DNA from: Spizellomyces punctatus DAOM BR117
Lineage: Eukaryota
Assembly: GCA_000182565.2 (NCBI GenBank)
Contig: KQ257458.1
Reading direction: 5' to 3' (one strand)
DNA: 64,000 bases
The translations under genes and the position numbers were made by a program. Of this stretch, positions 13,021 to 51,338 are shown in pieces; position 1 is the stretch's first letter, and each line of letters opens with the position of its first letter. The notes below the pieces were generated by a model that did not search any database, had not been told where the DNA came from, and saw only the letters and a list, made by a program, of their open reading frames with translations.

Positions 13021-13641
13021 TTTGACAAAGCACCAGATAGATTTGCGTCCTTGCGTGAACGACTTCACTGTCGGCTCTGTCTATTTCAGGTGATGTTCCT
13101 GCTGGCGGAAACGCTCATTTGCTGCAACGTAAGAAAGACGAGAAATGGGCGAAGGTTGACTTGGCCGGTGACGTCATGATCTACCATTCTGGCGTCGAGT
13201 CGTTCCTCATCCTTTCACCTCTTCCACGGGCATATTGACCTGTCCTTTTATCTTCCCGCCGGTAATTGCCTCTTGGACGACATGAGCCCAGTACATGGCA
13301 CATCGGCCACATTACGCTGTCACGGTTTCAACGACGTGGTGGTCCCCAGGTGCGGAATGACAGCACGTCAACGGTCTGTTTGGAATCTGACTGACGAGGT
13401 AATAATTGTATTAAAGTCCGCAAAGCTCCCAAGGACCGCACTACTCTCATTGCCGATGCATTTTGTCTTGCCAGATTGAACATGCGTTCGTCCTCAGCGT
13501 CGCCCATGGTTGACACCACGTGATTGTAGCCACAAATATTGGTCCTCGGCTGGTACTGCTACAACCTGCATGACCTCAGCAATGTAATGTGAGTGGATTC
13601 CATCAGCGTTCCCCCATCGCCTTGATAGATCCTTTGAAAGG

Positions 13642-15393
13642 ATGAAGCTTCCGGCAAGTGCAAATCAAGGGTTCAAACAGGAGCCACCAGTACTGCAAAA
13701 CCAGTATGAAGATGACCCAGCCCTACAAGGGATCTTGTTTCATTATCTTCCGCATTCCGACTTTGAAGCTGTCACCGGTGATCTGAAGAATTTGGGTCAA
13801 CGTGCAATTACAGATATTCTGGCGCTCGGGGACAATGCTGAACAGCATCATCCCACTCTAACGCAGTATGATCATTGGTGCAGGCGGATAGATAAGTTAG
13901 AAACCTCAGAAGGATGGCGGGCTTTGAAAGGGGTTGCCGCGGAGGAAGGTTTGATTGCCATCGGATACGAGCGTAAGCTACGCCAGTTCAGCAGGGTTTA
14001 CCAGTTTGCAAAGTTGTACGTCGCTGGGCCCAGCATGGCAATGTATACTTGTCCCTTGGCCATGACAGACGGGGCCGCTCGATTGATAGAATTACATGGC
14101 ACACAGGATATGAAGGAAACAGCTTTCGCGCGCCTCACATCGCGCGACCCGGCAAAATTTTGGACCAGTGGACAGTGGATGACGGAAAGACCTGGCGGGT
14201 CGGATGTCGGGGGTACGGAAACAGAGGCAGTTAAATCCAGCGATGGCCGGGGTTGGCTTCTATCCGGTTTCAAGTGGTTTTCATCGGCCACCGATTCTGA
14301 TATGACTTTTCTACTCGCTCGTACACGAGACCAATCGACTGGTTCAGTAAAAGAAGGGTCGCGAGGGCTTTCTCTGTTCTACGCCAAGCTGCGCGACTCT
14401 GACGGTAACCTCAATGGAATCCGAGTGCATCGGCTCAAAAACAAATTCGGTACCAAGGCTCTCCCAACCGCAGAGCTGGAGCTAGATAATCTCCCAGGGT
14501 CCATGGTGGGGTCCGAGCATCGTGGTGTTGCCACCATTGCAGTGATACTCAACATCACTCGCATACACAGCGCGTTGTGCACGACCTCAAGCCTTCGCAG
14601 GTCGTACGCAATCGCGAAGAGCTACGCCGAGAAACGTGTAGTATTTGGAAAGTCGTTGTCAACTCAACCACTTCATCTTGCTACCTTGGCTGATATTGAC
14701 ATGACCTTGCGCGGCGCTATGCAGCTCTTTTTCTTTGCGGTACTACTCCTCGGAGAATCCGAATGCCATCCCGATGAGAGCCGTCGCGCCCTGTCCGGAA
14801 CACTGCTTCGCATTACAACACCTCTTTTGAAAATGTGGGTTTGTCACGAAGCGATGCCGGCTATAACAGAAGCCCTGGAAGCATGTGGTGGACAGGGCTA
14901 CATGGAAGAGACTGGAATTGCCCGTCAGCTTCGCGACGCCCAGGTGAACTCGATTTGGGAAGGAACAACAAATGTCCAAGCTCTAGACTTGTTAAGGATC
15001 GTGGGCCCAGTCTTTCCTGTGTACAGGAAGAAAGTGCTTGAACTTGTGAGCCACGAGTCGCTACTGAAACTGCCCGTGAGCGTGGTTAAGGATGCCTTGG
15101 ATTATGTTCAAAAGATAATCGTTGCCATGCAAAGTTGGGAAAGAGATCAACAGGAAGCAAAGGCCCGGTTGCTTGGATTTGCATTGGCGAGGATACTCAT
15201 TGGGGCCCTCCTTATCGATCATGGTGTTTATCTGCAAAGAGAGGGTCATGGTGATGCTGAGGCGAGCTTAGTATGCGCAAAACGCTGGTGCGCGAACGTC
15301 GGATTATTGGTAGGGCAATTGGATGCAGCACCACATTCGTCGAAGGAAGATTTGGTATTAGTATACGGAAAGAGTTCAAGGGCTATGCTTTAA
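13642..15393 (+). CDS. Acyl-CoA dehydrogenase, AidB/ACDH-11-like, intronless, 583 aa
   Basis: CPLAMTDGAA, WTSGQWMTERPGGSDV, GFKWFSSATD, RLKNKFGTKALPTAELEL, GGQGYMEE, RDAQVNSIWEGTTNV. Confidence 0.93.
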   Translation: MKLPASANQGFKQEPPVLQNQYEDDPALQGILFHYLPHSDFEAVTGDLKNLGQRAITDILALGDNAEQHHPTLTQYDHWCRRIDKLETSEGWRALKGVAAEEGLIAIGYERKLRQFSRVYQFAKLYVAGPSMAMYTCPLAMTDGAARLIELHGTQDMKETAFARLTSRDPAKFWTSGQWMTERPGGSDVGGTETEAVKSSDGRGWLLSGFKWFSSATDSDMTFLLARTRDQSTGSVKEGSRGLSLFYAKLRDSDGNLNGIRVHRLKNKFGTKALPTAELELDNLPGSMVGSEHRGVATIAVILNITRIHSALCTTSSLRRSYAIAKSYAEKRVVFGKSLSTQPLHLATLADIDMTLRGAMQLFFFAVLLLGESECHPDESRRALSGTLLRITTPLLKMWVCHEAMPAITEALEACGGQGYMEETGIARQLRDAQVNSIWEGTTNVQALDLLRIVGPVFPVYRKKVLELVSHESLLKLPVSVVKDALDYVQKIIVAMQSWERDQQEAKARLLGFALARILIGALLIDHGVYLQREGHGDAEASLVCAKRWCANVGLLVGQLDAAPHSSKEDLVLVYGKSSRAML

Positions 15394-16042: not shown

Positions 16043-16892
16043 TCAGGCGACATTCATCTTTGGTTTCGCAGCTCCGGCTTTCTTGGGACGAAGCCACTCT
16101 TTTGGGAATTCGAGATTCGCACGACGAGGTTTGACGTGTCGCAGATCCAATGGTACATCTGTGAAAGCATCTTTCTCATCCTACGCAAAATAGGCTTCAT
16201 GAGCACCAAACGACGAGATTCGCAGCATATACAGCGGCGTCCTACCTTTGCCTCATTCACCATTCCATTCAACAACTTCACCAACCCAATCCTATTCATC
16301 TCGCGATCCACCTCTGCGTTCCCAGTAGCAGCTACCTCACTTGTCTCCGCAGACACTGTAACCACATCGCTGTAAGGATCGTACTTGTCTCCAGCCAAAA
16401 GGAGAAATTTGTGACGTTGGGCAGGGGTCAACGGAAGTGTACCAACTTTGACCTGAACGGTGACTTTGGTAGAGTAGGGTGGTGGCTGTGTGAAGTCATA
16501 TGTGTAGCTGTCGTAATAAGTTGTTACAATGTGGGATGTTGGTGGTGGTGTGAACGGTCGGTGTTTTCCTATGCAACCATATTTAGAGCTTGCCACCAAC
16601 ACATCAATATTCCGACAATTCAGCACCACAAACCTTTAAGCATTTCGACATCATTCTTCATCTTCAACAATAGATCCTTGGTCCACTTCGCAGTTTCTAC
16701 AAAGTCAAGTTCGTAGCGGTGCAATCCATCCGCGGCGGTATCCCCACTGAGTGCTACAAAATCATTTTCGTCACGACGCTCGGCACCCGTTTGTTTCTTG
16801 CGTGCATAACTGGCAAACGTTGTGGTAAAGTTCCGGCTAGGTGCACGGACGGCTTTGAGGGCCGGGAGAAGCTTCCTGTATGGGCGCATCAT
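16043..16892 (-). CDS. RSM24: Mitochondrial small-subunit ribosomal protein mS35 (Rsm24), 3 exons
   Basis: Presequence-like N-terminus; KVTVQVKVGTLPLTPAQRHKFLLLAGDKYDP; DAFTDVPLDLRHVKP..LEFPKEW. Confidence 0.88.
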
Positions 16893-20089: not shown

Positions 20090-21331
20090 TCATTGTCTTG
20101 ACTTTGCAGCCGCCGACAAAGCAGCAATCTTGCGGTCAACCACCATCTTACGCCCTTTCCGATGATCCTCATAGTCTCTCCCAACCCGAGACTGAGGTCC
20201 AATGTCCTTGGACAGTATAAACCGGACCAGCACCATTACCCACGACGTGTGATAGGCTAAAGTGTTGTAGAATTCGGGTGCAACATCCCGGACTTTCCGT
20301 AGATTACTCCATGGTACCTAAAACGACGCGTAGGCGGTCAGATTACAGAACACGTTATTGTCACAATAAAGGAGAAACAGCAAGCATACCTTGGTAAAAT
20401 CATGATGTTCGTTATGATATCCAATGTTCATGAATAGGTAATTCAAGCTTCCATAGTAGGAGTAAGTCTCTTGTCCATCGTCAAAAGTGAAGTGCTCTTG
20501 AATAAAGTGAGCCGCGGCAGGGTGAATGCCGTAGCCAAACCATAAGGATAGGAACAGATACAAGAAACCCCTTGGTCCACAGTAGATCCAGACAAGGGCA
20601 TCCGTCGTGATAGTGAACACCCAGTTATACAGTTCCCATCTAGATGGCCGCTTTTGCATTGCTGCCCCTCTCACTACGTACATCATCGGGTAAAAGAAGA
20701 GAAAGACGAACTTCAAGAGCGGATTGCCTCTGATCAGTTTCACTTCCCAATCAAGGGGAAGGTCCGGATCATGGCCAATGACGCCTTGGTAGGCGTGGTG
20801 CTCCAGGTGATACCGGCGGAAGGAGGCATAGATGGGGAACGGGATGCCAATGTTGGCCACGAGCCCTACCGCACGATTGATAGCCATTCCTTCCCCACAC
20901 AGACCATGGGTTGCTTCATGAATGATTACACCATAGACCTGTGTCAAGGACCCACCAACAATATACGTGCACGCAAGCATTCCCCACAAGGAGTCGGTCG
21001 CCACGCGCCCGAAATAGTACGCAAGGGCCACTTGGATGGAAGCGGTCAGCAAGGCAATCCACTTTGTAAGCGGTTCGTAGCCATATAGTGTTTTTATTTC
21101 GGGGTGGCTCTCCAGAATGGCAAGCTTTCGCTTAATATGCGGTTCGTCAAGGTCATCCTTGGCAATGTCGTCGTCCTTTCCTGGAATAGACCGGAGCCAG
21201 TCTCCCAGATAAAGAGGATGCCGACGGTCCAGCTGCTCTGTGCTTTCGTCTTTGGCACCTGCACCAGCTCTAGACCGAAGGTTCTCGGCCGCAGAGGCGG
21301 CTGATCTGAGCGCTGGTGTTGTGGAACACAT
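20090..21331 (-). CDS. DES1: Sphingolipid delta-4 desaturase, 2 exons
   Basis: EPHIKRKLAILESHPEIKTLYG N-terminal motif; His boxes HEATH, HLEHH, HNEHH; HFIQEH; QETYSYYG. Confidence 0.95.
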
Positions 21332-22225
21332 TGCCAAGCTTACTTGAGCTATACCGAAACGTGTTTGAATAACCTGCTACGTGCAAGAGCGTCCCAAGAG
21401 TTCTATAGGCATACCTTGGAGCAAAGTTGGCGGATCAGTGCCAAGAACGAGGAGTGTTCTGTGGGGATGGGAGGGGCTGAAAAACGAAAACGCTAAACGG
21501 CCAAGTGATTTTCACCCTTTTAAATACGCGCGGCCAACTTTAAGCCCCGCCCGCCAAGCCGAAAATGGTTACATTGGATCTGCAAGTCAAATTGACTTGA
21601 AATGACACATTTCTTCAGCGCTTTTGGGCATTTGCTCGCTGGGAATCCTCGAGGATTTGGACACCACATCTTTCGTCTACTTGAGTGAAGATGAACGCTT
21701 TTTGGTCGCGCAAGTGCCGAATGTGTTGCACATCCCCAATGGAGGGGAACTGCCGCCTAGAAGGCATTTTCCCCTAAAGGGCAACCCCGTTCAACGGGGG
21801 CTTCTGGCATTAGACAGGTCAAGCTTGACGGGCTCCATCTAGCACTGATCGCTCCCCGTAGCTGATTCCCCTCGAACTATGCTTTCGATTTTCGATTTCT
21901 GCTTGTTCCTTGATGATGAGCGATCCAAAGTTCAGGAAATGGATCGTGACAGGTTGCCACCACTTGAAAACCTCCTATTCCGGCATTTACCCGGTAGATG
22001 ACCTGACAGCCCTCTTTCAGAATGCTCTGAATGAGATGGACATGCCATTCAACAAGCGTGCAAATCCCTATTCAACCTGCTCTTCCTTCGCCATCGACCC
22101 TCAGAATGTTGCAAATTCCATTGTTTACATAAGCAGAACCAGTGCTTAGTAACCGAATAACCTTATCCACAGATCATAGATCCCAGGTAACTGCCGTGGG
22201 GAAACTTGAACTTTTTGTTGAGGAA

Positions 22226-24547
22226 ATGTCGCGAAGGACCAGTATAACGTGTGAGCACCTGGCACCCCCATGTCTGTGTTCGCACAACACAACCTCACAT
22301 GAAGGTGACCATGACCAAACACCGGGCAAAACGGGCGAGTCGCGAACCTCGTGGGCTTCGATGAGCAGCAATGGCTCCACAGCATCCTCTTCTGACCGAC
22401 ACCAAAAGATGCCTTCGAATACCTTTTACAAACGGACATTGCCCTCCACATGCACACCCTTCAACTCTGCAAAAGGTCGCTCTCTGTTTACCGGAGCGTT
22501 GACGGAAGGATACATGGAGACATACTTTGCTCTATCATTGCAATATTTAACCCAGTCAGAGCCAGCATATTGTGGACTTTCTTCTCTTTGTATGGTGCTG
22601 AACGCTCTTGAAATTGATCCCGGACGGCAGTGGAAAGGCGTTTGGAGATGGTATGATGAGAGCATGCTCGACTGTTGTAGACCTCTGGAAGACGTCATGA
22701 AGAACGGAATTACGTTGCCAGAGTTCGTATGCCTAGCACGATGCAATGGACTAAAGGCGCACCTGAGAAGGGCAGACAAAATGTGAGATAAATATTCAAA
22801 GACCCAGGGTTTACATGTAGCGCGGGAAGGTTGACTGACTGCTACGCTACCGCACGTCTTCCTCAGCACGAAAGAGCAATTTCTGGCCGATTTAAAGCAA
22901 ACGTCTCGCGAGCCAAAAGAATTCTTGGTCGTATCGTACGATCGCGGAACTCTACAGCAGACTGGAACGGGGCATTTTAGCCCGGTGGGTGGGTATAACG
23001 AGTCAGAAGACATGGTCTTGATATTGGATGTCGCGCGCTTCAAGGTTTGTCGTACTGTTGCAAACATCTCGGTAATGTGTAAATTGTACTCAAAGCTGCG
23101 ATCCATCGCATATTTTTCAGTATCCAGCATACTGGGTGCCGTTCGATCTGCTCTGGTATGGGGTTGCAGTTGATCTGTCGTAGTCCTCAGAATGACTAGA
23201 CGGAAAACCATTTTTCACACCAGGCAATCACTGCAACCGTGCGACACAACAACTGGGAAGCCAAGGTACACGCCAACGTAGTGCCTATCCAGCATCTACC
23301 AACAAGGCGGACTAAATTTCACTATTGAAAACAGGGGCTATGTCATCCTCAAACGAGGAAAGCGTAGCTACGTGCAATCCGCCCTCAGTCAGCTGGCCGT
23401 GAACCGCGAGTCTTGGCCTCGTTTGTCCAACATCCTATTCCAAGAACTCCCCAAGCGGTTTGCCACGTCACCACCCGAGAGCCCTGCTCAGTTCATTTCC
23501 GTTGTTGTGGACGCCATTCCCGATGAGTATGATTCTGTGGTGGAAAATCGCATGCCGCTATTTGTGGCTCCTTTTGCTGCAGATGATCAGGTGTTAACAG
23601 CAACCGCAGATGGAACGAGCGTGGGACAATGTGACCCACACCAGGTCGGCTGTGAAAACGTCCAGGCTACTCTGGATGCATACGTAGCCGGGCTCGATGA
23701 TTTGTTGCACAAGCTTGCGGAAACCGATCTGTATCGGTTTGTGGCGGACTCAATTGCGTCCAAGCGCAAGATGCGAAATAGAGAACAAATTATGGCTATG
23801 GCGGCAGCTGCCAGCGCCAAAGCAGCTGCCGCTCTTGCCGCTCAGAATGGTGAACCAACGGACGCAACTACCGAACCCACCTCATCCACACCACCGATCC
23901 TTAAACCTCTCTTCATCGAGCGTACTTCCGCCATGTCTTCTGCCCGTATCTCTTCCCCACCAATGTCTCCTCGTTACGCTGTCATCAATGCTACGCAATC
24001 CTGTGTGTCCAGCCCTCGACTTAGCGGAATTTTCACCCCTGAGCGAGCAACATCGTCATCCTCACTGTCACTATCCCTTGCTAATCTGCATCCGCCTAAC
24101 CATCCAGTAAACGACTTCACTGCTTTCTTGACCATGTTTTTGTTTGCCCTGTTTTCTTACAAGCCTTTCCATGAAAATTTGAGGGACGTGGACGCGGATG
24201 GGGATTATGGTTTATTAGAGCTACAGCATCAGGATCCACCGTCGCAGGAGGGAACCCGGAATGGAAAAGCAAGTGGAGAGTTTATGCCAAACGGCCGGAG
24301 GATGTCTATGGCTGAACGAGTTCGAGGTGTCGTCAACTTGGATGTGGCAGGAATTCAGGATGTGAATTTGCGAATGGAGGTTGCTTTTTTGCGGGACCAA
24401 ATTGCTGCTTTGACAGAATTGCAGAGTCAGGATGCAAGTCGGGTTGCCGGTGTACCTACACCATCATCGGCGTCATCTTCTCTTTCGGTTGACGCAAGTG
24501 TACCATTGTTGACAGATGCCAATGCAAGCAATGTTAATAGTTCATGA
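22226..24547 (+). CDS. PCS1: Phytochelatin synthase (glutathione gamma-glutamylcysteinyltransferase), multi-exon
   Basis: [10 protein letters not shown] (catalytic Cys), [29 protein letters not shown] (His), LDVARFK|YPAYW (Asp), TTGKPR|GY. Confidence 0.95.
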
Positions 24548-24718: not shown

Positions 24719-26225
24719 TTAAACTTTGGCGGCAAAACTTCTCAACAAAGCATCCTCTCCCCCGCTAAAAATGTACTCTCCCACCCAATCTACTCCAAAA
24801 ACCTTTTGCTCTTTAGTTTTGTCCCCGCCCGCTAACGTGTACATTGGCGTCGTACTCCGTATATCCCATACTTTTATAGTCGAGTCATATGACCCGCTGA
24901 CAAAGGTGTAAGAGTTTGTTGACGACCATCGGACGGAGGAGACCCAGTTGGTGTGAGAAGAGAGGTGGAGTTTAACCGTCTGGCCTTCTGTTTTATGCGC
25001 AAGATCACCAAAGGATAAGCCATCGACTATGGCAAAGAAATGGCCTGAACAAACACAACAAGCACGTACCCTGAGCTCTCAAATCCCACAATCGAAGAAC
25101 TCCATCCGAATGCCCCGTAACAATCAACCCATTCTCACCAGAGTAATCCATGCCTAAAACGACTTTTTCGCAATTTCTGGTAACTGTGTTTGTACTTTGC
25201 TCTACATCCCATGCACGCACGGTGTGGTCCCATCCGCCTGTGACCAACATGGCCGAGTTTGTCGGTGCAAAAGTAACGCAAGAAATGGGACCCACGTGGC
25301 CGGTGAGACGCTTTTGAGCACGCTGTTAGGGCATCTGGGTTAGCTTGTATAAGAAATCAAGAAGGACCAAATTCATACATACCTTGAGTGGAATGACAGA
25401 TGAATCGGCACCTTGGTCTGATTTGAGTTTTCTTCGCTTCCGCGATTCGCCACCATTATCGTCCTCTGCTTCCTCAACATCGTTCGGATCCGTATTCCAG
25501 AGCAAGACACATCCATCCCATGATACAGTCGCCAATTCCTTTCCATCCGGACTGCACGCCACCCCCTCCACACTTCCAGTATGCCCCACACATTCATACA
25601 GTATTCTCGACTTGTTTCCTTCAGCATCGTACTCCCAACCAAACACTTTAGCATCCTGCCCCCCCGTAACAAATCGATATCGCTCCGCAATAGAAGACTC
25701 AGGAATCCATGATACAGACTTAATCGGGCCCGAATGCCCCTTCAAAACTGCCTTACAAACTCCTGACCGATCCCACACCCTACCCAAGGTATCAAAGCAA
25801 CCCGTCAATACTAGCCCAGAACTATGTCCGCGGACGCTGGAAATCCATTCATCGTGCTCAAATGCTGCCGCTGGGGAGGGTGGTAGTGTTGCTTCCACAT
25901 ATTCCAGTTCGACAATGTTTTCAGTTGAGAGGCCGTGATTGTCCAAGTATGTTTTAAGACTCGTTTGAAGGAATTTTCCGTCGATCAGAAAATTGAAGGG
26001 AATAGGCTTAAGTGTGGTCTCGTCGGACTCGGTGTCTGTTGCCGTTCGTCCGAGAAGATGGTTAATAATTTCGGAGAGACCGTAGCGTCTCAGACGAGCA
26101 GGAACAAGGATTGCTGTATCGGTAACGGCATGCTGTTGTTGGCGGGTGCGGAACCGTACTTGGACTTGAATATCTCCCACCTTGTTTGTTGAGGTGGCTG
26201 GTGATGGGGGTTGTTCAGTAGTCAT
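24719..26225 (-). CDS. YTM1: Ribosome biogenesis protein Ytm1/WDR12 (NLE/UBL + WD40), 3 exons
   Basis: VPARLRRYGLSEIINHLL, IPFNFLIDGKFLQTSL, ENIVELEYVEA, HDEWISSV, then WD40 repeats. Confidence 0.95.
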
Positions 26226-26376
26226 GCTGGTGGTTCTGTGCAAACTGGAGTGTGATCTCGGAAAGGCAGCAAGATCAACCAACATCGCCAAAAACAAATT
26301 CAAGTTTGATGAGATAATGTGGCGTAAAGAAAACCACGTGATACATGTTGTTCCAGTGTCAATGTAGTCTGCGTAT

Positions 26377-28215
26377 CTATCTATCTACTAAGGACAATAT
26401 CCATCGATCCCACAATGTCTCAAACTTCACCATAGCCTCTGCTTTCTCCTGCTGTCCCATGCCAGCATAGGTAATTCCATTGGAAGCAAGCTTCTTCAGG
26501 GAAGCAAGATCCAATGACTCAAATGCCATGTAGACTGACGTGAGGGAAAGGAAGTTAAGGTGAGGGAGAGGAATTTAAGGTGAGTAGTATATGCTGAGAA
26601 CATACCAGGACCCACTCACTCACCTTGATAGTAGTCGTAAGAAACACCTTCATATCCAAAAACCCCAGGATCATCCGATGCCAATGACACCTGTACTCCC
26701 TTCAGTAACAAATCAATCATCGGATGGCCACGGAGATCTCCAATATAGCCAAGGAGTTGGTTGGAAATCGGGGCAACCTCCACCGCAATGTCGCTGTTGA
26801 TGAACTTCTCAATTAGTCCCGGATGGTGGGAAAGCGAGAAGGCATGTCCAACGCGCTTGGTGTTGAGGAGATAGGCATCGTAGAGATTTGTATCTGGGGG
26901 AACTCCAGAGCGCGTCGTTTCGCCGGCATGGAAGATGAAGGGAAGACTGGTGGACTGCTCTGATGCGCTTGCTTGAGCTTTTCGCAGGGTATCGACCAGT
27001 GGTCTGAGTGCGGATGTCTATAAAGGAGGTTAATTAGTTGAGAGCATAATCCGCTCATCCACGAAATCTACGAATTCCAACCTCTTCGTGCCCGACGAGA
27101 TCATATCCAATGATCTGATCGCCATGAGTTTTTCGCAATTCAATAGCGTGCATCAGTGAATTTTCAATATCAACTGTCGGGTTAAATCGCAGGTCTTGGT
27201 AAATGAATCTCAAGTCTTGGAAATGCGGATGGTCCTTTCTGAACTTGTCTACAATGTCCCGAACACTGTCCAGCACGCTCGAGAAGTTGCGGCGTGTTCC
27301 ATCTAGATGATAGGTCTCCCATCTTGAAGAACGGAGTTCAATGTAAGTGAGCCCATCATTGTGATATTGTTCTAGTAGCCGAGTGATATATGCCTCAAAC
27401 ATCGGTTGATATTGGATCAGCGACCCCAATGTGTCAAAAACGAGGTCAAATTTAGCCCACGCTTTTTCCTCGGTGGGGTACTCACTAGCATGTATTTCCG
27501 CTGATTAGAGAGATGGTGGAAGAACAGAGTCGCGAAAACTCACTTTGAGATAACGCTATTTTGGTGTTCGACGAATGCATCAAATGCAGAGGGTCCACCT
27601 GGGAAGGAGCTACGAGCATGTTGACAAGAAGCCCATTCATCACGGGGTAATTGTGTGGACGAGAAATTGAAAAGAGGTAATTGGATACTTGCATTACCCC
27701 TTTCGTCAAAGGTGGGGTAAACTCTGTTCACAAATCTGGGAGCGAGCGACGATCATTAGTTTTCGACCTCAGACATTTAAAAGGCTATCTGATACTCACT
27801 TTAAATAGCAGTTTCCGATATCCTCAGCTGCTGTTTTCACTATCCACTTGATGTCCAGCATGGCTTCCAAATGCCCGTGCAAAAAACCGCCCTTTGGCAT
27901 AGACCTGATGACTTTGAATAATTCTGTGCTGTCTATCACAGGCTTGGCGAGTGAGAAGTGTAAGGCAGGGGGAAATTGACTTTGAGCTTTCAATGCCGTG
28001 GTCTCTTTTTCGCGAAGAGCATGAAGGTAAGCATTCGCCTTCTTATCCATGTCTGATAGGACAATGTCATTATCAAAACGATTTGCGGAATCATAAAGGA
28101 CCAGTTGGTTTCGTTGCACTGTGTAGGTGGGATCGGGTGATCTTGCAATAGGGGCCGCTATGACAGGCGCAATTAGGAAAGTGAAATACGCTAGAATTCT
28201 GTATATTGGTGCCAT
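26377..28215 (-). CDS. ADA2: Secreted adenosine deaminase 2 / ADGF (CECR1-like), multi-exon
   Basis: Signal-peptide-like MAPIYRILAYFTFLIAPVIAA; MPKGGFLHGH, YIELR, GYDLVGHEE, FHAGET, KRVGHA, EVAPISNQLLG, SDDP. Confidence 0.92.
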
Positions 28216-29126
28216 ATTGACATATAGATTATAGGTGGGGAAATCAGCAGAGTCCTCCAATCCCCATTGGGGGGGGATGTGGAGAAGCACACTGCAAAGG
28301 AGAAGCGATGATGAGCTCATGCCCATGGCTTGCATGGCTTTGCAAAGCCTCGATTTCACACGTGGCAAATATCGCGCGCCCTCCGAAGCGAACGGACGAC
28401 GAAAGGGCAGTGCAGAGCAGAGCTGGAAAGCGATAAACATACTTGCTACTGGAGTGAATCAAGCAGCCTTAAGCCGATATTTTATGGATCTTGGCTGAGG
28501 TGATTACTGCGGTCGTTCCATTTGCATAAATTCTATGAGATGCTTCCGTTGGCAAAGAAAGTATAATAATAGTGACTTTGTGGGCCGTAGCGACTATAAG
28601 CCAAGATTGGCGGAGCAGGCGGTGAGGAGGAAGCGGAAGCGAACGCAAATCCAACCTTTTATGCGTCAGAAACTGCACCCTTTGATAATGAGATCCGACT
28701 GGAATTTATGCAACAAAAGCTTCAAGGACATTCGAAATTATGTACTCTACAGTCAGCAATATCTGCTCTGTGTACGTTTCGAGCATCCCAATTACGGATC
28801 ATGAGTGAAAATAAACGAAAAAACAAAAACAAAATGTCCAGAACTTGACGTCTGCAAGCAAACTTCTTTACTTGCTGTGCCACGCAATGTCCGACAGACG
28901 TCCGAAATCCCTCCTTCCCCTGGTGGATTGCTTCGGTTAGCAAATACGTTTTATCAAAACAATCGGCGATTTCGATCTCGGCCTCGTACCTCCACATTGT
29001 TTGATTCTTGATAGAATAGCTACCGACTGCTGCACAAGGTCTTCTGACCCGTATCTTTCTTCGCTGCCCTCAATTTAGAACATCAAAAGTTTTCGTTTTC
29101 CCCGTTGACTAGTGTTGGCCAAGCCC

Positions 29127-31471
29127 ATGTCAACATCCAAACCTGATTCATCAGAGTCTTCAGCAACACCAACGAACAAAGGATGGAATTTGGATGCGCC
29201 ATCCTATGTTCCTGACAACTCGGCGCTCGCGCAGACACCGGCGACGGACCCCAGACGGGGCCATCATGGTGGCGGCCAAAGTGGTCGTGGCCGAGGGAGA
29301 GGTCAGCGAGGACGAGGGAATTTTCGCGGCAGGTCCGCATATAAGGGTGGGTCAGGCTATGGATATGAATATCCGTGGCAACCAAGGGTATACTATGGGG
29401 AAGAGGGATATGTGCATTATGGGAGCCCAGACGCAAGAAGATATCATACTGATGCCGTTTTGCTTGCCGGAGGAGACCCTGGATATGGTGGCGACGGGGG
29501 AGTAGGTGCGCTGTCTGACCTTTTGTAATTTTATTGCCTCACCAAAGCTCGCTAATCAATCATACAGGCTACACAGAAGGGTATTCGTACATCAACCCAG
29601 GTCCGGACAACGTAAGTCTACCGTCATACCAGAGCCAAGATTTTGCAGATCGGTCGCTGTCGTCCGATACAGAGCGCGACAATGAAACGGATAAAGCAGA
29701 ATCTTTGGCAGATTCAGTCATAACGTCCTCCACGTATACCGATGCGACATCGAGCTCCTTTGTTGAATCGCTCATCACCCAATCCTCTCGAGGAAGTGGG
29801 TACAGGAATCTGAATCAGCAGCATCGTCTAGGCGGACAGGCCTCCTTGAGACAGCAAGCTTCGATGAACTCTGAGGAACGAAGATTGGAGCAGCGGCAAA
29901 AGCAGATAGACTATGGCAAGAATACGGTAGGATATAAGCGATATATTGCGATGGTGCCAAAGTGAGTGACAAGATTGGTCCGGCTACCTAATTACACCAA
30001 TATTTGTGCTCATCAGTTTTGTCACAAGGCACAAGCGTAAGAGAGGGGATCCGGAGACGCCAAAGAAACACGCCAAATGCAGCAAGAGATGTTGGGATGG
30101 TTTGATAAGACATTGGCGGAGAAAGCTGCATGAATGGGACCCACCAGAAATGAAGGAACAGGGGCTATCGGATCTTGAGTTCTCGGATATTATCAAGGAA
30201 TCTGTCCGGACAACCACTGATCAGCTAGAGGAGAACTTGAAGCACCCAACGGAACTAGCTGACTGGACTTTTCCTCCCGTGACGAAGGAACCTTTGCGTG
30301 TGAAACCCACTCCGCTAGGCGAAAGTCTGAAACAGCCGCAAGCGGCCAGGTACAGATCGACACGTTTATAGAATTGCGTCTAGGATTTGACATCCCATTG
30401 CATGATGAAATAGGAACCTAGGCTTCGGGTCCACACCACCTCCAACAGAGCCTCTTCGGCCACTTTGGGACCAGTTTTCGATAGATGAGCTGGATCAAAA
30501 GTTTGCATCTAAATTAAGACCTTGGGAGACGTTCGAGGGCTTCGGTCCAAGTCCAACCCGCCGGACAACAAAGCGCGGAGATGATCCTTTATCGTGGGCG
30601 GAATTTTCCATTGACGAATTGGACGAGAAGTTTGGTCATAAGTTGCGCATATCCGAAGCAATTGATTTAACATACAGGTGAGGAGTTACGGTTCTTGTTT
30701 TATGGACGATGATGCTAACCGAACTGGAATCACCAAGTCCATTAAATAACTCGACGAGCTCACCTTTCACCCCTTCCCCTCGATCTAAGCTCGCTCCGAT
30801 TGGGTATGTTCAAAAGTGGATATCAGTTTAGACATATAAGGCAGCGCGGTAATTTTATCCTCGCCCTAGTCGACCGACCCCGGTGAAGAGATTGAACCCT
30901 ATGGCAGCTAGTTTTGATGTGCTTGGCGCGTCACCGATCAGCAGGTACATTGTTGAGATTATTTTGCCCAATTCATTAAGCCGCGTCGAGCTTTATCTCT
31001 TACTTTTTTGATGGATTCCGGCTTACAGCGATACCCATCATACCGGGGACTCGTCGGTAACACCTAGAACACATAGATCCAACAGTATCGGGTGCGTTCT
31101 TTTTTGGGGTCTCTACATTTGATTCGGCATTACCGACGCCTCACATTTCTACCAGTTTCTCATATTCGGATCCCCGGCGATTGCACAACCACCAAATGGA
31201 GGGCTCTGCAAGCCCTCTAAGTCTGTACGAGGAAGAAGATTCTGTTATGGTCATATACGATCCAGCCGCGTCATCATCGGTTCCCTCCTTGACGTCATCT
31301 ACGCTACCCTCCCGGGCGGCAAGTCCTTCCAGGACTGCGATGGGAAGAGAAGCAACACCGCAGTCGCTTTGGGGGAATGGGAGTCCTAACAAGGGGTCTC
31401 CAGGAATTGGGCGAGTGGGCGCAGGAGTAGGAGAGGTGGGTGGCGGGACTCTCTTAGATGGCGTCTGGTAA
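29127..31471 (+). CDS. SLBP: Histone RNA stem-loop binding protein (SLBP-domain protein), ~8 exons
   Basis: RRLEQRQKQIDYGKNTVGYKRYIAMVPK|HKRKRGDPETPKKHAKCSKRCWDGLIRHWRRKLHEWDPP matches the SLBP RNA-binding domain; downstream exon joins checked through the LNPMAASF exon stay in frame; last exon ends TAA 31471. Confidence 0.9.
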
Positions 31472-31909
31472 GAAAAAATGGCCGAATCTTTGGTTGGCTT
31501 GTTTTCAGCTGTTGCCAAAAGTCGGAGGTGCTTGGCGCCTCTTGTGTGTATTTAACCTCTGTGCCCACAGCATGACAATTGAAATAAAAGTTCTGTCGTG
31601 TCTAACTCGTCATGGAGACATTAGTACTAAGGCCAGAAGTTTCCAATGAATTCGCCACCACATTGTCATTGTTTTAGGATTACTATGTTGTGCTATTTCA
31701 AGAAAGTATTATATATACAGTTAAGACCGACACCATTCTCAGCCGTCTCCACCAAAGATCGTCTGTCAGAGATCTTCTTTGTCCAGCAGACCTCAGGACG
31801 AACTAGTGTTCAACCATCGCTCAAATCAAGATCCGCCAGCCTCTTTTTTATCTCATCAAGGTTTCTAACGGAGCCCTCTGCGGTACCACTACAACACCAC
31901 CAATAAGCT

Positions 31910-33583: not shown

Positions 33584-33830
33584 TAAATTTACAAATAATG
33601 TGCAAACAGAGGCTGTTGGAATACACTCCTCTAATGTAATTATCGCAATAGGCGAGCCGCTTTGTACATTTCCTTTGCATATTTCTTGTTATACAGAATA
33701 TCGTAAACAAATGAACTTTGCTGTGCCTCTGTAATTTAGCCTTTTAGAGATGCCAGTACGGACGCTTCAAACGCGATCAACAAACTTGGGCTGCACACAA
33801 TCTTCCAGGTTATTAGCGGGGGCTGCAGGC

Positions 33831-36800
33831 ATGACGGTTGAAAATGAGGAAAGGAGGTCAAAGCTCTCCAAGACGGATTCAGACCTTAGCGACAAGCCAC
33901 TACGCACTCCTGGCTCGGGAGGCGGGTTCTCTACTGCAACGCCGATTTCTTTTGACCGCTCCACATTCTCTGGAGCCACGTTTTCCCCCGAGGACTTCTT
34001 GGCAGACCGACGTCACATTGCCCTAGATCAGCTCAAAACCGAGCTCCAGCAAGCTTTGAGGGACCTGAAGGCGGAGCTGGTGGAACTCATAAACCTCGAC
34101 TATGCCGACTTTATAAACTTGTCGACCAAACTGGTGGGCGTCGATAAGATCATAGCTGACATTAGCCAGCCATTGGAGAAGATAAATACGGAGGTGCAGG
34201 TGTGTACGAAAGCTTGGATACAGTGGTGTGCTCGCTTGGTAATCATGTCTCCAAGTCCGTGTATGATGCCCTCTCCACAGTTATAAATGAGCTCGAGACG
34301 GAACTCGATAAACGTGCGTCCATTCGGGAGAAGAAGGTACGTCCCATATTACGAAATCGTGTCAACCGACATCATGCATGAACCCGTTGCTTCAAGTAGG
34401 GGTATCTCCAACTTTTTGTCAGTATACATGATTCTATTGGAAAATTGGACGCCTTGCTTAATGTGGCGGAGGGAAACAAATATGTCAGTGACTTTGAAGG
34501 GGACAACGGGTAAGTATGCTGTTTCCAGAATGAGCGAGTCTTTGCTTGTCAACTAACTCATTGATAGGTCAACGGAAAAATCCTTTGGGGACGGAAAGCT
34601 CATAGAAAGGGTTGCCAACGAATACACCCAACTGCGGTATTTAATTTCTCGAGCCGATAACAAGCCATTCGTTCAGCAAATACAAAAGGTACATACTAAT
34701 ATTAGTCAGTGGGGCATGAGTTCAGTTATTCCCTTGGTGGAGCAGTGTGTTGACCTATGCCTGTGCGTCCATGACAGCGAATTACGCGGATAAAAGATAC
34801 CCTGACTTCGAGTTTATCACGTTCTTTGACAACATCTTACTCTGCCGTCATGAAAAATGGGGAGAATCCTTCGACCCACGCCGCCCTTTCTCAAATTCTT
34901 CGTACGTACGTCACGATTGACAAAGTTGACGAAGCCCAGAACATCTTCAAGGAGACTGTTATGCGACCATTTTTGGACAAGGTGCTACCAATCCCTCATG
35001 ACCTTTCTACTCTCTTTGCGCTTACATCGCCTGCCGTGGCCTCTTTCAGAATATTTCACGCCAGGCTCTTGGGGTGGATTCAATTGCCACATCTCCGGTG
35101 ACGGACAAGAATCCCCTGCAAGACATGTACAGTAAAATTCTCGAATTTACTCGCAAAGATTGTGCCAAAGTCCTTGAAGTGACCACCAGGGCCTTCCACG
35201 GAACCAATGGAAACTTGTTGATACATGGAATCTGGGCACCAGTGATAACCACGATACTTAAGAACATCAGCTTCATCTTTAATCCCGGCATTCCTGAAGT
35301 CTTTCACAGGGTGAGATGCAAAGCAAGCATCTTTGCGCATAATCTTGGACCCTGACACCTTGTTCAGAACTACGCTACAACCATGCGATTTGTAACCGAA
35401 TTCGAGTGCTTGTGCAAAACAAGAAAGTCACTGTCGATCCTGAGGTCTCACCAATCGACTGGGGAATTCATGCGGCGTTGGCAGTTACCCGTATACTTTC
35501 AGATCAGGTGAAATAAGAAGATGGCAAATCAAGCAGGAGGCATCACTCATTGGTCTTATGTACATTGTATGCAGATTTAGAGAAATCGCAACGGACTTTG
35601 AAGAAACTGCTCTGGCAAGCTATAATTATGATGGCAACTTCACGGCCAATGACGGTATATTTGGGACCAACTATTTTCAGCAGCGTCTTTCTAACATATT
35701 TACTCATCGTGCACAGGACTAATTTTACCTCCAAGTACGGCACTTATTGTATGTATGCAATTATGCTGGGACGACTCGGTTTATCTCTGTGGGCTATCTC
35801 ATCGCTTCTGGAAGCTGACGCTGCAGGTACTTGGGCATGGTGCAAATGGTGCAACGTCTGTAGTACGAAAGACTTATTCGCTTTAACAGTTGCTAGCGCG
35901 ATATACATTGTGGGTTCGTCAAGCTCTGCAGCCAGATATTGATGTTTCGGCAATCTCATCCGACAGTCAAGATGCGGAGCAAAAGGTATATCTACGTACA
36001 TTATACAGCCTTCTCCTGCGGCAATTAGTGAATGTGATTTTTTGATCCTAGGGCTCGTCTCCGCCAACAACGGTGCGCACGGGTAGTTCATCGGGCAAGG
36101 GAGGTCCGACAAGTACTGATGCCAGCAGCGATGCGGCACTCCGAAAATTCTTGTACTTCTACAATGATATTAGAGGTATAGAAGATCAGGTAAATCATGC
36201 CGTCTTGAGCTTGCGTGAACCCTCTCTTAACCATACTCTGCAGGTTCATAAATTTTTTGACGACAGTATCAAATCGAAACTACCGGCCGCAGTCAGAGAC
36301 GACAGTATTCTCCGAGGTATGAAACCTTATCTTTGGTAGATAGTTTGGAAAACGATAATAACATGAGCGCACAGAGTCTCTTGATGCGTCCTTGTCGCCT
36401 CTAAAGGCGATTTTACCACAATTGAGCCAGCGCGTATGTAAAGTGCTGATACGCCGGTGTTCCGATCCACTGCGCAACAACATACATAGCATAACTCCGC
36501 AGTACCGCATGACAAACAAGGAGGTAACTGTCCGCTGTGTAATCTGGCAGAATTTGCATTCAGCGATGCTGATATTACGCCCACCTCAATAGCCTCCATC
36601 CCGACCGTCTCATTTCATTACGACCATATTTAAGCCATTATCATCCTTCTTTGATGATCACCGTCATCTTCTCAAGGCAACAACGATACCAGAATGGACA
36701 AGTTTTGTGATGGATGATGTTACGGGAAAGTGCGTGAGATCGCGAATTTCGACTTTCATATGGACCAAAACTTATCAATAAATCATCACGATCTATAGAT

Positions 36801-48148: not shown

Positions 48149-50021
48149 TCACACCAACGCTTCCGCAACACTTTTCACTCGGCGGAACTCGTCCATAATA
48201 AGAACCGGGGCGGTTCCACCTTGCGCTTTTGTCCTCAGACTATTTAATTGCTATTGGCAGAAGTGCTAATAAATATCGATTCACAAAAGCACGCCAAAAG
48301 CAGGCCAGTAGATATTAGGGACACTTACATCCGTGGCGTCTTTTAACTTTTGACATTTCATGAAATCGGCGTTGGCGATGGAGCGTGCCAGCTCTTGTTC
48401 GAGTCTCGGCACCATGTCATCAACATAGCGTGTTACATCCGCAGTCTGCCCAACAGAGCCTTCACGGCTCCTTGAGGGTGGAGGCGGCGGGGCAGCACTG
48501 AACCTCCTAGCTGGGGGAGGTGGAGGCGGACGCTTACCAAGACCCGGGCTCGACACACCGACGCTTCCCCCGAACCCATTGGAAGTAGAATCTTGGGAAG
48601 CACCAGAGGGAAAGTGCCGAGGTGGCGGCAAATCTGTACGGAAGGTCCAACGCCCATCGGTCTCATACTGTGGACCTGAACTTGTCGTACTGGCCCTACG
48701 GTCCAAGCTTGAGATACTACTAGCTGAAAATGAGGGCTTTATGGGACCATTACGTGCTGCGGCAAAGCCCGAAGCTCCTAAGGTATTTGACGACCGAAGG
48801 CCACCTGACGGAGGTGGCGGTATTGGGCGATTTCCAGGTGCTGGTGGAGCAGGCGGTCTTTCAAACATGTCCTTCACATTGGTACGAGACGGCGGCGGTG
48901 GAGGCGGGGCCCTCGTCGATCCCCCGCCAGGGGGAGGTGGAGGAGCAGGTCTCCCGGGGGCCGCATTGGTTTTGGGAAATGTACTGACCCTAGACGCAGG
49001 TGCAAGTGGTTGAGGCGTTGGCGTAGCGGCACTGCGATTCGGCACCGGAGGTGGAGGGGTTCGTCCTGGCACCGGAGGTGGAACAGCCCGCGGCATAGGT
49101 GGCGAAGTTGGTTCAGACGATCGCGGAGGTGCTGGAGGTGGGGCGGCTGATCGGGCAGGGGCTGGCGGAGGAGTTGCTCTTGCCGGTGCAGGCGGCGGTG
49201 TGCCGCGCGCCGCAGGAGCTGGAGGTCTGCCGAATGCTCCAGGTAGTGTAGGGGAAGAAGGTCCAGATTTTGGCTTGGGTGGTATTGGTCTAGGTTCGGG
49301 AGCGGAATCTACCGGGAAACATCATCAGATGACGTCGATAACCAACATAACAGTCTTCCTCAATATACCTGCGCTTCCAGGTTTCAATCCGGTTGATCTC
49401 AGCTTTGGCATTCCTCCTGCAAATAAACCACCAAGTCCTGCTGGACCTCCCATAGGAGCTCCACCACCACCGCCACCACTGCCAGATCCTGCACCAGCGC
49501 CTGGTGGTCGGGGCATTGGCGGAGATCTGCCTCCTCCTGCTCCCGGACCTGGTTTCGGAGCTAGAATGAGACCAAATTATTAGCGTTGTGGCTTTCAGGA
49601 AACGACTTTGAAAGAACTAAAGTCTCAAGGAGTATGTATACGCAAAGATGGGCAAGCGTATCTTCGAATTGCCAGTACGTGATAGTACGCAATAATTGAC
49701 AGCGAGTGAGCTGTACGTCGGTGACCAAGGGCTGGCATTTGTAATTATTCCCCCCTTCCTAAAGCTGAACGACGCCTGATAATCCCTAGAGATTCTCCCA
49801 GCCGTCCTGTTTCCCACCGTGCTCAACAGTGGTTTTCCATAACTTGCGAGGTTCACATACATACCATCCAAAAGAGGACCACTGCGGTCATTGGTTTGCA
49901 CTTTTTTCAGTTTGGCTCCTTTCTGGATAGACTTTAAGAGTGCAGTGTTTGCTGGCGGAGCTGAAGTCGCAACGGGTGGGGGAGGTGGACCTGGCGGAGG
50001 AGGTGGAGGAGGGGCTGGCAT
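48149..50021 (-). CDS. VRP1: Verprolin/WIP-family actin regulator, 4 exons
   Basis: MPAPPPPPPPGPPPP; WH2 ALLKSIQKGAKLKKVQTNDRSGP; second WH2-like GLGGLFAGGMPKLRST; poly-Pro; WASP-binding-like GRWTFRTDLPPP. Confidence 0.92.
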
Positions 50022-50343
50022 AGTGTGGCAAGTACTAAGGATATCTGTCTGGGAATGTGCACAATATTATTGCTGACGATAGCGTATCCACTGCACGGAC
50101 GTTTCTTGAATGAGCGCTTCAGGAGGAGAGTGCGATGAGAATGGCGTGAAAAGATTGGGGCAAGCTTGGCGAACCCAAACGTCAGCCTTGTTGTGAATAT
50201 TCAATGCATGTCACGTGAATGCTTAGCATCTTCAGTTGCTTTCCCTTCCTTTGCGAGTTTGAGAAATCGGTCCGCTACTCACGACATCGGCCAGGTTCTC
50301 GTTCATTTTTTCGAAGGGAGGTCGAATAGGTGAGCATCTCTTT

Positions 50344-50778: not shown

Positions 50779-51338
50779 ATGGTTGCCCCTTTGGTCAAGC
50801 GCCCCATCATCAAGAAGCGCACAAAGAAGTTCAAGCGCCATCAATCTGACCGTTACAAGAAGATTGACGTACGTTCTTGTCGAAGCCAACCACTTCAATG
50901 TGATTGGAATCTAACCAGCGATTTGGATGCATATGATAGGAATCATGGAGGAAGCCCAAGGGTATTGATAACCGTGTGCGTAGGAGGTTCAAGGGCCAGA
51001 TTCCCATGCCCAAGATTGGATATGGTTCCAACTCCAAGACCCGCCATCTCCTCCCCAACGGCTTCAAGAAGTTCCTTGTCAACAACGTGAACGACCTTGA
51101 GCTCCTCCTCATGCACAACCGTGTCTACGCAGCTGAGATTGCCCACAACGTCTCTGCAAAGAAGCGGGTTGCTATCGTCGAGCGCGCCGCTCAGTTGAAC
51201 GTAAAGGTCACCAACGCCGCTGGTCGTCTGCGCACTGCTGTAAGTACCATAAACCTTTCACTTGGCGGCAATGCGTTAGATTTCTGATGGATGTTCTGTT
51301 TGCGATTCCTTTCTTGTCATAAATAGGAGAACGAATAA
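50779..51338 (+). CDS. RPL32: 60S ribosomal protein eL32, 3 coding exons plus a probable 5'UTR intron
   Basis: [17 protein letters not shown]..|[40 protein letters not shown]. Confidence 0.98.

Follow-up and report, generated by a model that had tools for sequence, protein, structure and literature searches.

The SLBP gene and its product

This report concerns a gene for SLBP, a stem-loop binding protein, in the chytrid Spizellomyces punctatus DAOM BR117 and a short peptide near the N-terminus of its product that resembles PAM2, the motif bound by the MLLE domain of PABP, the poly(A)-binding protein. The gene lies in a stretch of 64,000 nucleotides from contig KQ257458.1 (assembly GCA_000182565.2), which will be referred to as the window. 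It is a single plus-strand gene at positions 29127-31471 that is divided into eight exons (29127-29505, 29568-29961, 30029-30349, 30414-30677, 30738-30803, 30870-30944, 31029-31091, and 31156-31471), as modelled from the sequence. Every intron has GT-AG borders, and the last exon ends in a TAA stop codon at 31469-31471 to give a product of 625 amino acids. The spliced product is colinear from its first to its last residue with P0001, a hypothetical protein from Spizellomyces sp. 'palustris', and the two proteins are identical at 601 of the 625 residues with no internal gap.

The RNA-binding domain of the protein (residues 229-296) is encoded at 29873-30143 on the plus strand and is split by the second intron (29962-30028). 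Both parts are matched by the Pfam profile PF15247 (SLBP_RNA_bind), for which the curated cut-off is 27: exon 2 (E 4.4e-11, 43.1 bits) covers profile positions 2-30, whereas positions 32-70 are covered by exon 3 (E 2.2e-14, 53.7 bits). The orthologue P0001 matches the same profile at 8e-32 (109.5 bits). The gene had been called an SLBP in a sequence-only reading of the window, and the matches in exons 2 and 3 bear this out; judged by its domain and its orthologue, the gene is the SLBP gene of a Spizellomyces-type chytrid. Within the domain, the residues R231-R232, Q235-D241, G243-T246, D265, P266, T268, P269, and K271 are invariant in six chytrid SLBPs, as is most of K274-E298. The invariant residues include a T-P-x-K element, which is a phosphorylation site in animal SLBP. 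In an AlphaFold2 model of P0001 that was built with six sequences, the RNA-binding domain is the sole confidently folded part of the protein (helices 221-293), and the predicted local distance difference test (pLDDT) score is <50 over residues 7-221 and over most of the C-terminal half.

In RNA run X8, which is 3'-biased and of which ~6% was read, one strand is covered from 31184 to 31638 at a depth of up to 67, with no reads in that direction beyond this point. Reads of this run that carry loose ends with runs of T at 31666 and 31669 correspond to the poly(A) site of a convergent neighbour on the minus strand, from which we infer that the reads are sense to the RNA. The 3' untranslated region of the SLBP mRNA is placed at 31472-31638 on the plus strand and has an AATAAA at 31583-31588, with the X8 reads stopping by ~31638. 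The 3' ends of the two convergent genes nearly touch, the poly(A) tails of the neighbour beginning at 31666 and 31669 (window 31583-31700). RNA run X1 touches 31577-31700 only, and the contigs of RNA runs X2 and X3 are unspliced and identical to the window. The portion of X8 that was read gave no splice joints in the SLBP gene, so that no intron is confirmed by reads and the linkage of the exons rests on homology.

Homology places the C-terminal exons in the SLBP gene. The alignment of P0001 with P0008 from Powellomyces hirtus (BLASTP E 7e-100) starts at residue 17 of P0001 and runs to the end of that protein, and it includes a shared acidic patch, a ...SxWGNxSP... element, and the terminal LLD[GS]VW. 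Because the product is colinear with these independently annotated orthologues up to the LLD[GS]VW end, the C-terminal exons are, by this comparison, part of the same gene. C-terminal exons that did not belong to the SLBP mRNA were named in the sequence-only reading as grounds for giving up its proposal, and colinearity with both P0001 and P0008 points the other way. The C-terminal tail (31214-31468, plus strand) that is common to Powellomyces consists of an acidic patch (PLS[LI]YEE..), a ..PQS[LI]WGN.SP.. element, and the LLD[GS]VW end. The models of P0003 and P0004 end before this tail, perhaps through truncated annotation.

A conserved peptide near the N-terminus

The peptide WNLDAPSYVP is encoded in exon 1 at 29184-29213 on the plus strand and occupies residues 20-29 of the spliced product (W20-P29), where it forms a conserved island in predicted disorder. 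Its coordinates are those given in the sequence-only reading. A profile search of 1.84 billion representative proteins retrieved 3596 members of the SLBP family at E <=0.001, and the best 151 of the 3596 were used for comparison. The pattern [LFWMIV]N..A..[FYW].P was found in 7 of the 151 representatives, compared with a mean of 0.105 and a maximum of 2 in 200 shuffles. Six of the seven matches are all of the full-length orthologues from the Spizellomyces group, in which the motif is found at residues 20-57. These results demonstrate that the N-terminal motif is more than a chance occurrence. The seventh match is the sequence LNGQAAAFSP at residue 162 of P0113, an SLBP-family protein of 465 amino acids from outside the Spizellomyces group, which may be an independent case.

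The six carriers come from six genera: Spizellomyces, Gaertneriomyces, Fimicolochytrium, Thoreauomyces, Powellomyces, and Phlyctochytrium (P. arcticum). In the NCBI taxonomy, Gaertneriomyces, Fimicolochytrium, Thoreauomyces, and Powellomyces are filed under Spizellomycetales and P. arcticum under Chytridiales. Despite this filing, the P. arcticum SLBP (P0002) has 51% identity to the Spizellomyces SLBP, the highest of the five orthologues compared, and it differs from P0001 by one residue across the RNA-binding domain.

The consensus of the motif over the six orthologues is [WF]-N-[LV]-[DN]-A-P-x-[YF]-[VT]-P. The Asn, the Ala, the Pro that follows it, and the last Pro are invariant in all six proteins; the first position, which is position 3 in PAM2 numbering, is Trp in five and Phe in one, and position 10 is Tyr in five and Phe in one. 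Over residues 17-30, the mean pair identity among the six proteins is 0.68, compared with 0.27 over the rest of the first 200 residues. Five conserved islands were found in the six orthologues, at residues 17-30, at 193-201, in the RNA-binding domain (as two overlapping runs), at 385-415, and at 430-450. When exon 1 residues 1-45 were searched against proteins, P0001 alone passed among 10 candidates. As seen so far, the motif appears to be confined to one chytrid group, the Spizellomyces group.

Comparison with the PAM2 consensus

The PAM2 consensus is LNxxAxEFxP, in which Asn4 stabilizes a beta-turn and a small residue (Ala) is required at position 7; one hydrophobic pocket takes Phe or Trp from position 10, and the other takes Leu from position 3 or, in eRF3, Phe (PMC7356810). 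In the crystal structure of a fungal Pab1 MLLE domain with a PAM2 peptide, Leu3, Phe10, and Pro12 are each required (PMC11572963). The N-terminal motif of the chytrid SLBPs has Asn4, Ala as the small residue at position 7, and Pro12 in all six orthologues. Position 10 is aromatic throughout, with Phe in one orthologue and Tyr, which lies outside the published consensus (PMC7356810), in five. The spacing of Asn4, Ala7, the aromatic residue at position 10, and Pro12 is exact, and both pocket positions vary only from one aromatic residue to another (W/F and Y/F). The location is also that of a PAM2, as an island (residues 17-30) within a region of pLDDT <50.

Several observations weigh against assigning the peptide to the PAM2 family. 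Position 3, which is Leu or rarely Phe in PAM2, is Trp in five orthologues and Phe in one. The Pfam profile PF07145 (PAM2) gave no match at E up to 10 to the six whole orthologues, to the exon 1 and exon 6 peptides of the window, or to six segments of 33-35 amino acids around the N-terminal motif, in a scan with a short model from which the HMMER filters drop weak matches and which was run without a positive-control PAM2 protein. A PDB profile search with the motif region returned 0 chains at E up to 10. A stricter PAM2 pattern, after the ELM resource, fits one of the six orthologues (P0002, FNVNAPTYVP), which is 1 of the 151 representatives against a shuffle mean of 0.55. Lastly, the motif was not seen in the SLBPs of Batrachochytrium dendrobatidis, B. 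salamandrivorans, Polyrhizophydium, Entophlyctis, Piromyces, Rhizophlyctis, or two Gonapodya, several of which are short models, so that its absence from other chytrid SLBPs is only partly informative; at least 60 residues precede the domain, as defined by pattern, in 81 of the 151 representatives.

Because neither PF07145 nor the PDB search gave a match and the stricter pattern fits only one orthologue of six, the peptide is best labelled PAM2-like, a putative variant in which position 3 is Trp, rather than an established member of the family. We consider a variant PAM2 the most likely identity of the N-terminal motif. The sequence-only reading had likened two motifs in the protein to PAM2, and for the N-terminal one the likeness holds at Asn4, Ala7, the aromatic position 10, and Pro12 and fails at position 3, with PF07145 detecting neither motif.

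These departures leave room for a different explanation, in which the N-terminal island would function as a short linear motif recognized by a partner that has no MLLE domain, such as a transport receptor or a 3'-end processing or decay factor, and its likeness to PAM2 is a coincidence. The blindness of PF07145 to the motif would be expected if this were so, and Trp3 and the Pro-x at positions 8-9 do depart from LNxxAxEFxP. Additionally, the SLBPs of other chytrid orders (Rhizophydiales and Gonapodya) carry quite different conserved peptides, and because the orders differ in this way lineage-specific motifs are common in the SLBP family. A coincidence would nevertheless have to supply five key PAM2 positions at exact spacing in six genera, with pocket positions that vary only from aromatic to aromatic, in a protein that binds the 3' end of an mRNA and is therefore the usual kind of PAM2 carrier. 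We regard a partner without an MLLE domain as possible but unlikely.

The RG/RGG tract and the C-terminal motif

An RG/RGG tract, GRGRGRGQRGRGNFRGR, is encoded at 29283-29333 on the plus strand (residues 53-69) and follows the N-terminal motif, in agreement with the sequence-only reading. In each of the six orthologues, 4-12 RG or GR dipeptides are found in the 110 residues after the motif, so that the kind of tract and its place are kept and its sequence is not.

The second PAM2-like motif, LNPMAASFDV, was also correctly located by that reading. It is encoded at 30892-30921 on the plus strand, occupies residues 483-492 (L483-V492), and is preceded by KR. Its first eight residues, LNPMAASF, form a classical PAM2 core (LNPxAxxF) with L3, N4, P5, A7, and F10. 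When P0001 was shuffled 20000 times, the LN..A..F core appeared in 0.22% of the shuffles and two matches to the looser form in 0.015%. The motif was found in the window and in P0001 only, and P0001 comes from a near-identical relative. The three further genera with models that extend this far (P0002, P0007, and P0008) have unrelated residues at the aligned place, and the region is not a conserved island. Pro12 is missing, the corresponding residues being D-V in the window and D-G in P0001. The pLDDT of the region is mostly <50.

The sequence-only reading had suggested a check of whether the motifs are conserved islands in disordered sequence. This applies to the N-terminal motif, which is kept in six of six orthologues and lies at pLDDT <50 in the P0001 model, and not to the C-terminal motif, which has no counterpart in three of three other genera. 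Because of this lack of conservation, the C-terminal motif may have been gained recently or may be accidental, and its presence in two very close genomes carries no weight as evidence of conservation. We retain LNPMAASF as a candidate for a second PAM2 that is specific to the genus and whose function is doubtful.

A reading in which both motifs are working PAM2 sites in Spizellomyces, such that one SLBP would hold two PABP molecules or hold one more tightly and the C-terminal site would have been acquired recently, relies on the classical residues L3, N4, P5, A7, and F10, the low shuffle rates, the low pLDDT, and the retention of the site in the window and P0001. The absence of the C-terminal site from P0002, P0007, and P0008, its lack of Pro12, and the lack of a Pfam match all count against two working sites, and we think this arrangement improbable.

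Histone mRNA in chytrids and the proposed role of the motif

A recent preprint (October 2026, 10.64898/2026.10.14.759114) reports that early-diverging fungi keep SLBP and stem-loops, in many cases alongside poly(A) tails, and that chytrid histone transcripts end in mixed sets of stem-loops, poly(A) signals, and poly(A) tails. Its main text also describes fungal SLBPs as being without a SLIP1 motif, with canonical SLIP1 in animals only, and reports from public RNA-seq that the S. punctatus SLBP is, like the histone genes, enriched in multinucleate growth stages (10.64898/2026.10.14.759114). The terms PAM2, PABP, and MLLE have 0 occurrences in that main text, and no protein link between the stem-loop and the tail is proposed there. 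In the window, no histone gene or Rfam histone stem-loop was found (Rfam 0 matches; Pfam on 84 of the 100 open reading frames of at least 110 amino acids), and Pfam found no PABP, MLLE, or histone domain in the same 84 frames; the 16 that were omitted comprise 8 that overlap the SLBP gene and 8 that are nested in longer frames. Because the window holds neither a histone gene nor a stem-loop, the histone RNA side of the model is taken from the literature.

We propose that the SLBP of the Spizellomyces group bridges to PABP through its N-terminal variant PAM2, and we put the chance of this at about even. The individual binding steps are inferred from the identity and structure of the gene and from the conservation and predicted disorder of the motif. 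As family membership suggests, the RNA-binding domain would bind the 3' stem-loop of a histone mRNA. A cytoplasmic PABP on the A-tail of the same mRNA would receive residues 20-29 in the peptide groove of its C-terminal MLLE domain. In the groove, Asn4 would form the turn and Ala7 would lie against the surface, with the aromatic residues at positions 3 and 10 occupying the two hydrophobic pockets and Pro12 holding the exit of the peptide. On mRNAs with both a stem-loop and an A-tail, SLBP and PABP would thus be tied into one stabilized 3'-end particle, and on a tail-less mRNA the motif could bring PABP to the transcript. Through PABP, the stem-loop would be connected to eIF4G, and this connection would take over the role that SLIP1 has in animals. 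The RG/RGG tract may add weak and unspecific contacts with RNA or with other factors.

A more tentative extension, to which we give somewhat less than an even chance, is that a hybrid particle (stem-loop, SLBP, PABP, and A-tail) replaces the SLBP-SLIP1 route in the Spizellomyces group, with a second, classical PAM2 added in Spizellomyces. The sequence-only reading had envisaged an intermediate state between animal and fungal control of histone mRNA, and this idea fits both the chytrid mRNAs with stem-loop and poly(A) and the missing SLIP1 motif that the preprint reports (10.64898/2026.10.14.759114). As a whole, what that reading inferred finds support in part. Bridging is plausible and unpublished, because the preprint describes transcripts with stem-loop and poly(A) and SLBPs without a SLIP1 motif and makes no mention of PAM2, PABP, or MLLE in its main text. 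The literature searched on SLBP with PAM2 or MLLE (PMC12827272 and PMC13130582 included) yielded no description of an SLBP that carries a PAM2. SLBP and PAM2 are each known, and it is their combination, together with the Trp-type variant, that is new to the literature searched.

A PAM2-type peptide could offer a concrete answer to how SLBP promotes the translation and stability of histone mRNA outside animals. If the proposal is correct, the stem-loop and poly(A) systems would be physically coupled and would not be alternatives, and the Spizellomyces group would offer a present-day mechanism midway between the control of histone mRNA by stem-loop only and by poly(A) only. Spizellomyces punctatus is a genetically tractable laboratory chytrid, and a conserved PAM2-type peptide would make such a link testable by mutation.

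A last alternative keeps the MLLE domain and changes its owner. Animal SLBP is degraded under cell-cycle control. It could be that the chytrid motif is a true MLLE ligand for a partner other than PABP, such as a ligase of the HECT family of the UBR5 type or a transporter of the Rrm4 type, and serves the turnover or transport of SLBP. This is very unlikely in our estimate: UBR5 and Ustilago Rrm4 do have MLLE domains, which discriminate PAM2-type peptides, and the PAM2L core FxY that is specific to Rrm4 has Tyr among its key residues (PMC11572963), but the chytrid motif is without the FxY core and has the spacing of PAM2.

Other conserved peptides in chytrid SLBPs

Two further islands in the C-terminal half of the protein are copies of one motif. 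Copy A, which begins LWDQFSIDELDQKFASKLRPWETFEGFG..., is encoded at 30463-30564 on the plus strand (residues 382-415, island 385-415) and has a predicted short helix at residues 388-396. Copy B, AEFSIDELDEKFGHKLRISEAIDL, is encoded at 30598-30669 on the plus strand (residues 427-450, island 430-450) and has a predicted short helix at residues 431-437. The motif has the form W-x-x-F-S-[IL]-[DE]-E-L-D-[QE]-K-F-[AG]-x-[KR]-[LM]-R and is among the best conserved parts of the six orthologues outside the RNA-binding domain. It loosely resembles the SLIP1-binding helix of animal SLBP with the spacing off by one. A SLIP1-binding motif was considered and rejected because of this spacing, as the hydrophobic and acidic residues are one place further from the Trp than they are in animals. 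An atlas search with the region of the twin motif gave no usable match.

A conserved SPFTPSPRSKL element, which contains TP and SP sites, is encoded at 30760-30792 on the plus strand (residues 461-471) and is found in P0001, P0002, P0007, and P0008. It could be a cluster for proline-directed phosphorylation, and it recalls the cell-cycle control of animal SLBP.

Other chytrid lineages have short motifs of their own. In the Rhizophydiales SLBPs (P0009, P0011, and P0012, from Batrachochytrium and Polyrhizophydium) the sequence WNPH[SA]Y.RFNRAAGQTR lies upstream of the domain; it starts with W-N-x-x-A/S and does not have PAM2 spacing. The SLBPs of the monoblepharid Gonapodya (P0022 and P0041) have an N-terminal M.SRRRPFTL.EAAG and a C-terminal NPFDS, which are further lineage-specific short motifs that accompany the same domain.

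PABP survey and neighbouring genes

A degenerate pattern for the MLLE signature was found at 119 loci in metagenome contigs, and 12 of the 119 that were fungal-looking or complete were aligned. With the MLLE alignment as the query, 8000 candidates were scored and 6414 matched at E <=1e-10; no chytrid PABP was found among the 120 matches listed. The C-terminus of the Coemansia javaensis PABP (P0177) carries two MLLE domains in tandem, and several mollusc and dinoflagellate matches score far above a single domain.

The remaining gene content of the window, as determined with Pfam on the long open reading frames, is ordinary housekeeping. On the plus strand are domains or genes for ThrE (4096-4935), SNF2 (7203-7673), acyl-CoA dehydrogenase (13588-15390), phytochelatin synthase (22133-23170), COG2 (33735-34283), and ribosomal protein L32e (50940-51284). 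On the minus strand are RhoGAP (~925-1440), MRP-S28 (16057-16635), sphingolipid desaturase (20321-21376), an NLE/WD40 protein (24722-26384), adenosine deaminase (26619-28458), and a WH2 protein (49620-50066).

Comparison with known systems

The proposed SLBP-PABP contact can be compared with four known systems. LARP4, LARP4B, ataxin-2, and Ustilago Upa1, which carry PAM2 or PAM2w, are likewise RNA-binding proteins with a PAM2-type peptide in disorder near a terminus, and for them the MLLE pockets accept variant aromatic residues (PMC7356810, PMC11572963). Unlike the chytrid SLBPs, these carriers act on ordinary polyadenylated mRNAs and none of them is an SLBP, whereas the chytrid variant combines Trp or Phe at position 3 with Tyr at position 10 and has no PF07145 match. 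In Leishmania, the PAM2 of eIF4E4 bridges to PABP1, which is also a lineage-specific PAM2 that rewires the connection between the 5' and 3' ends of the mRNA, but this PAM2 is on a cap-binding protein and not on a protein that binds a 3' stem-loop (PMC6379680). The pairing of SLBP2 with EIF4E2 in Trypanosoma brucei provides a non-animal SLBP homologue that has a direct, SLIP1-independent contact with the translation machinery. Its partner, however, is a homologue of the cap-binding protein, and no link to PAM2 or PABP is described in the account of that pair.

The fourth system is the animal complex of SLBP with SLIP1 (MIF4GD). In both the animal and the chytrid protein, a folded RNA-binding domain is accompanied by a disordered region with a short conserved peptide (PMC3763545). 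The animal peptide recruits the factor by which the histone 3' end is connected with translation initiation (PMC3763545), the same role being only proposed for the chytrid peptide. The two peptides differ in kind. The animal peptide is a SLIP1-binding helix with Trp, Gly or Ala at +1, Val at +4, Asp or Glu at +5, and Glu at +8 (PMC3763545), whereas the chytrid peptide has the spacing of PAM2 and its proposed partner is PABP itself.

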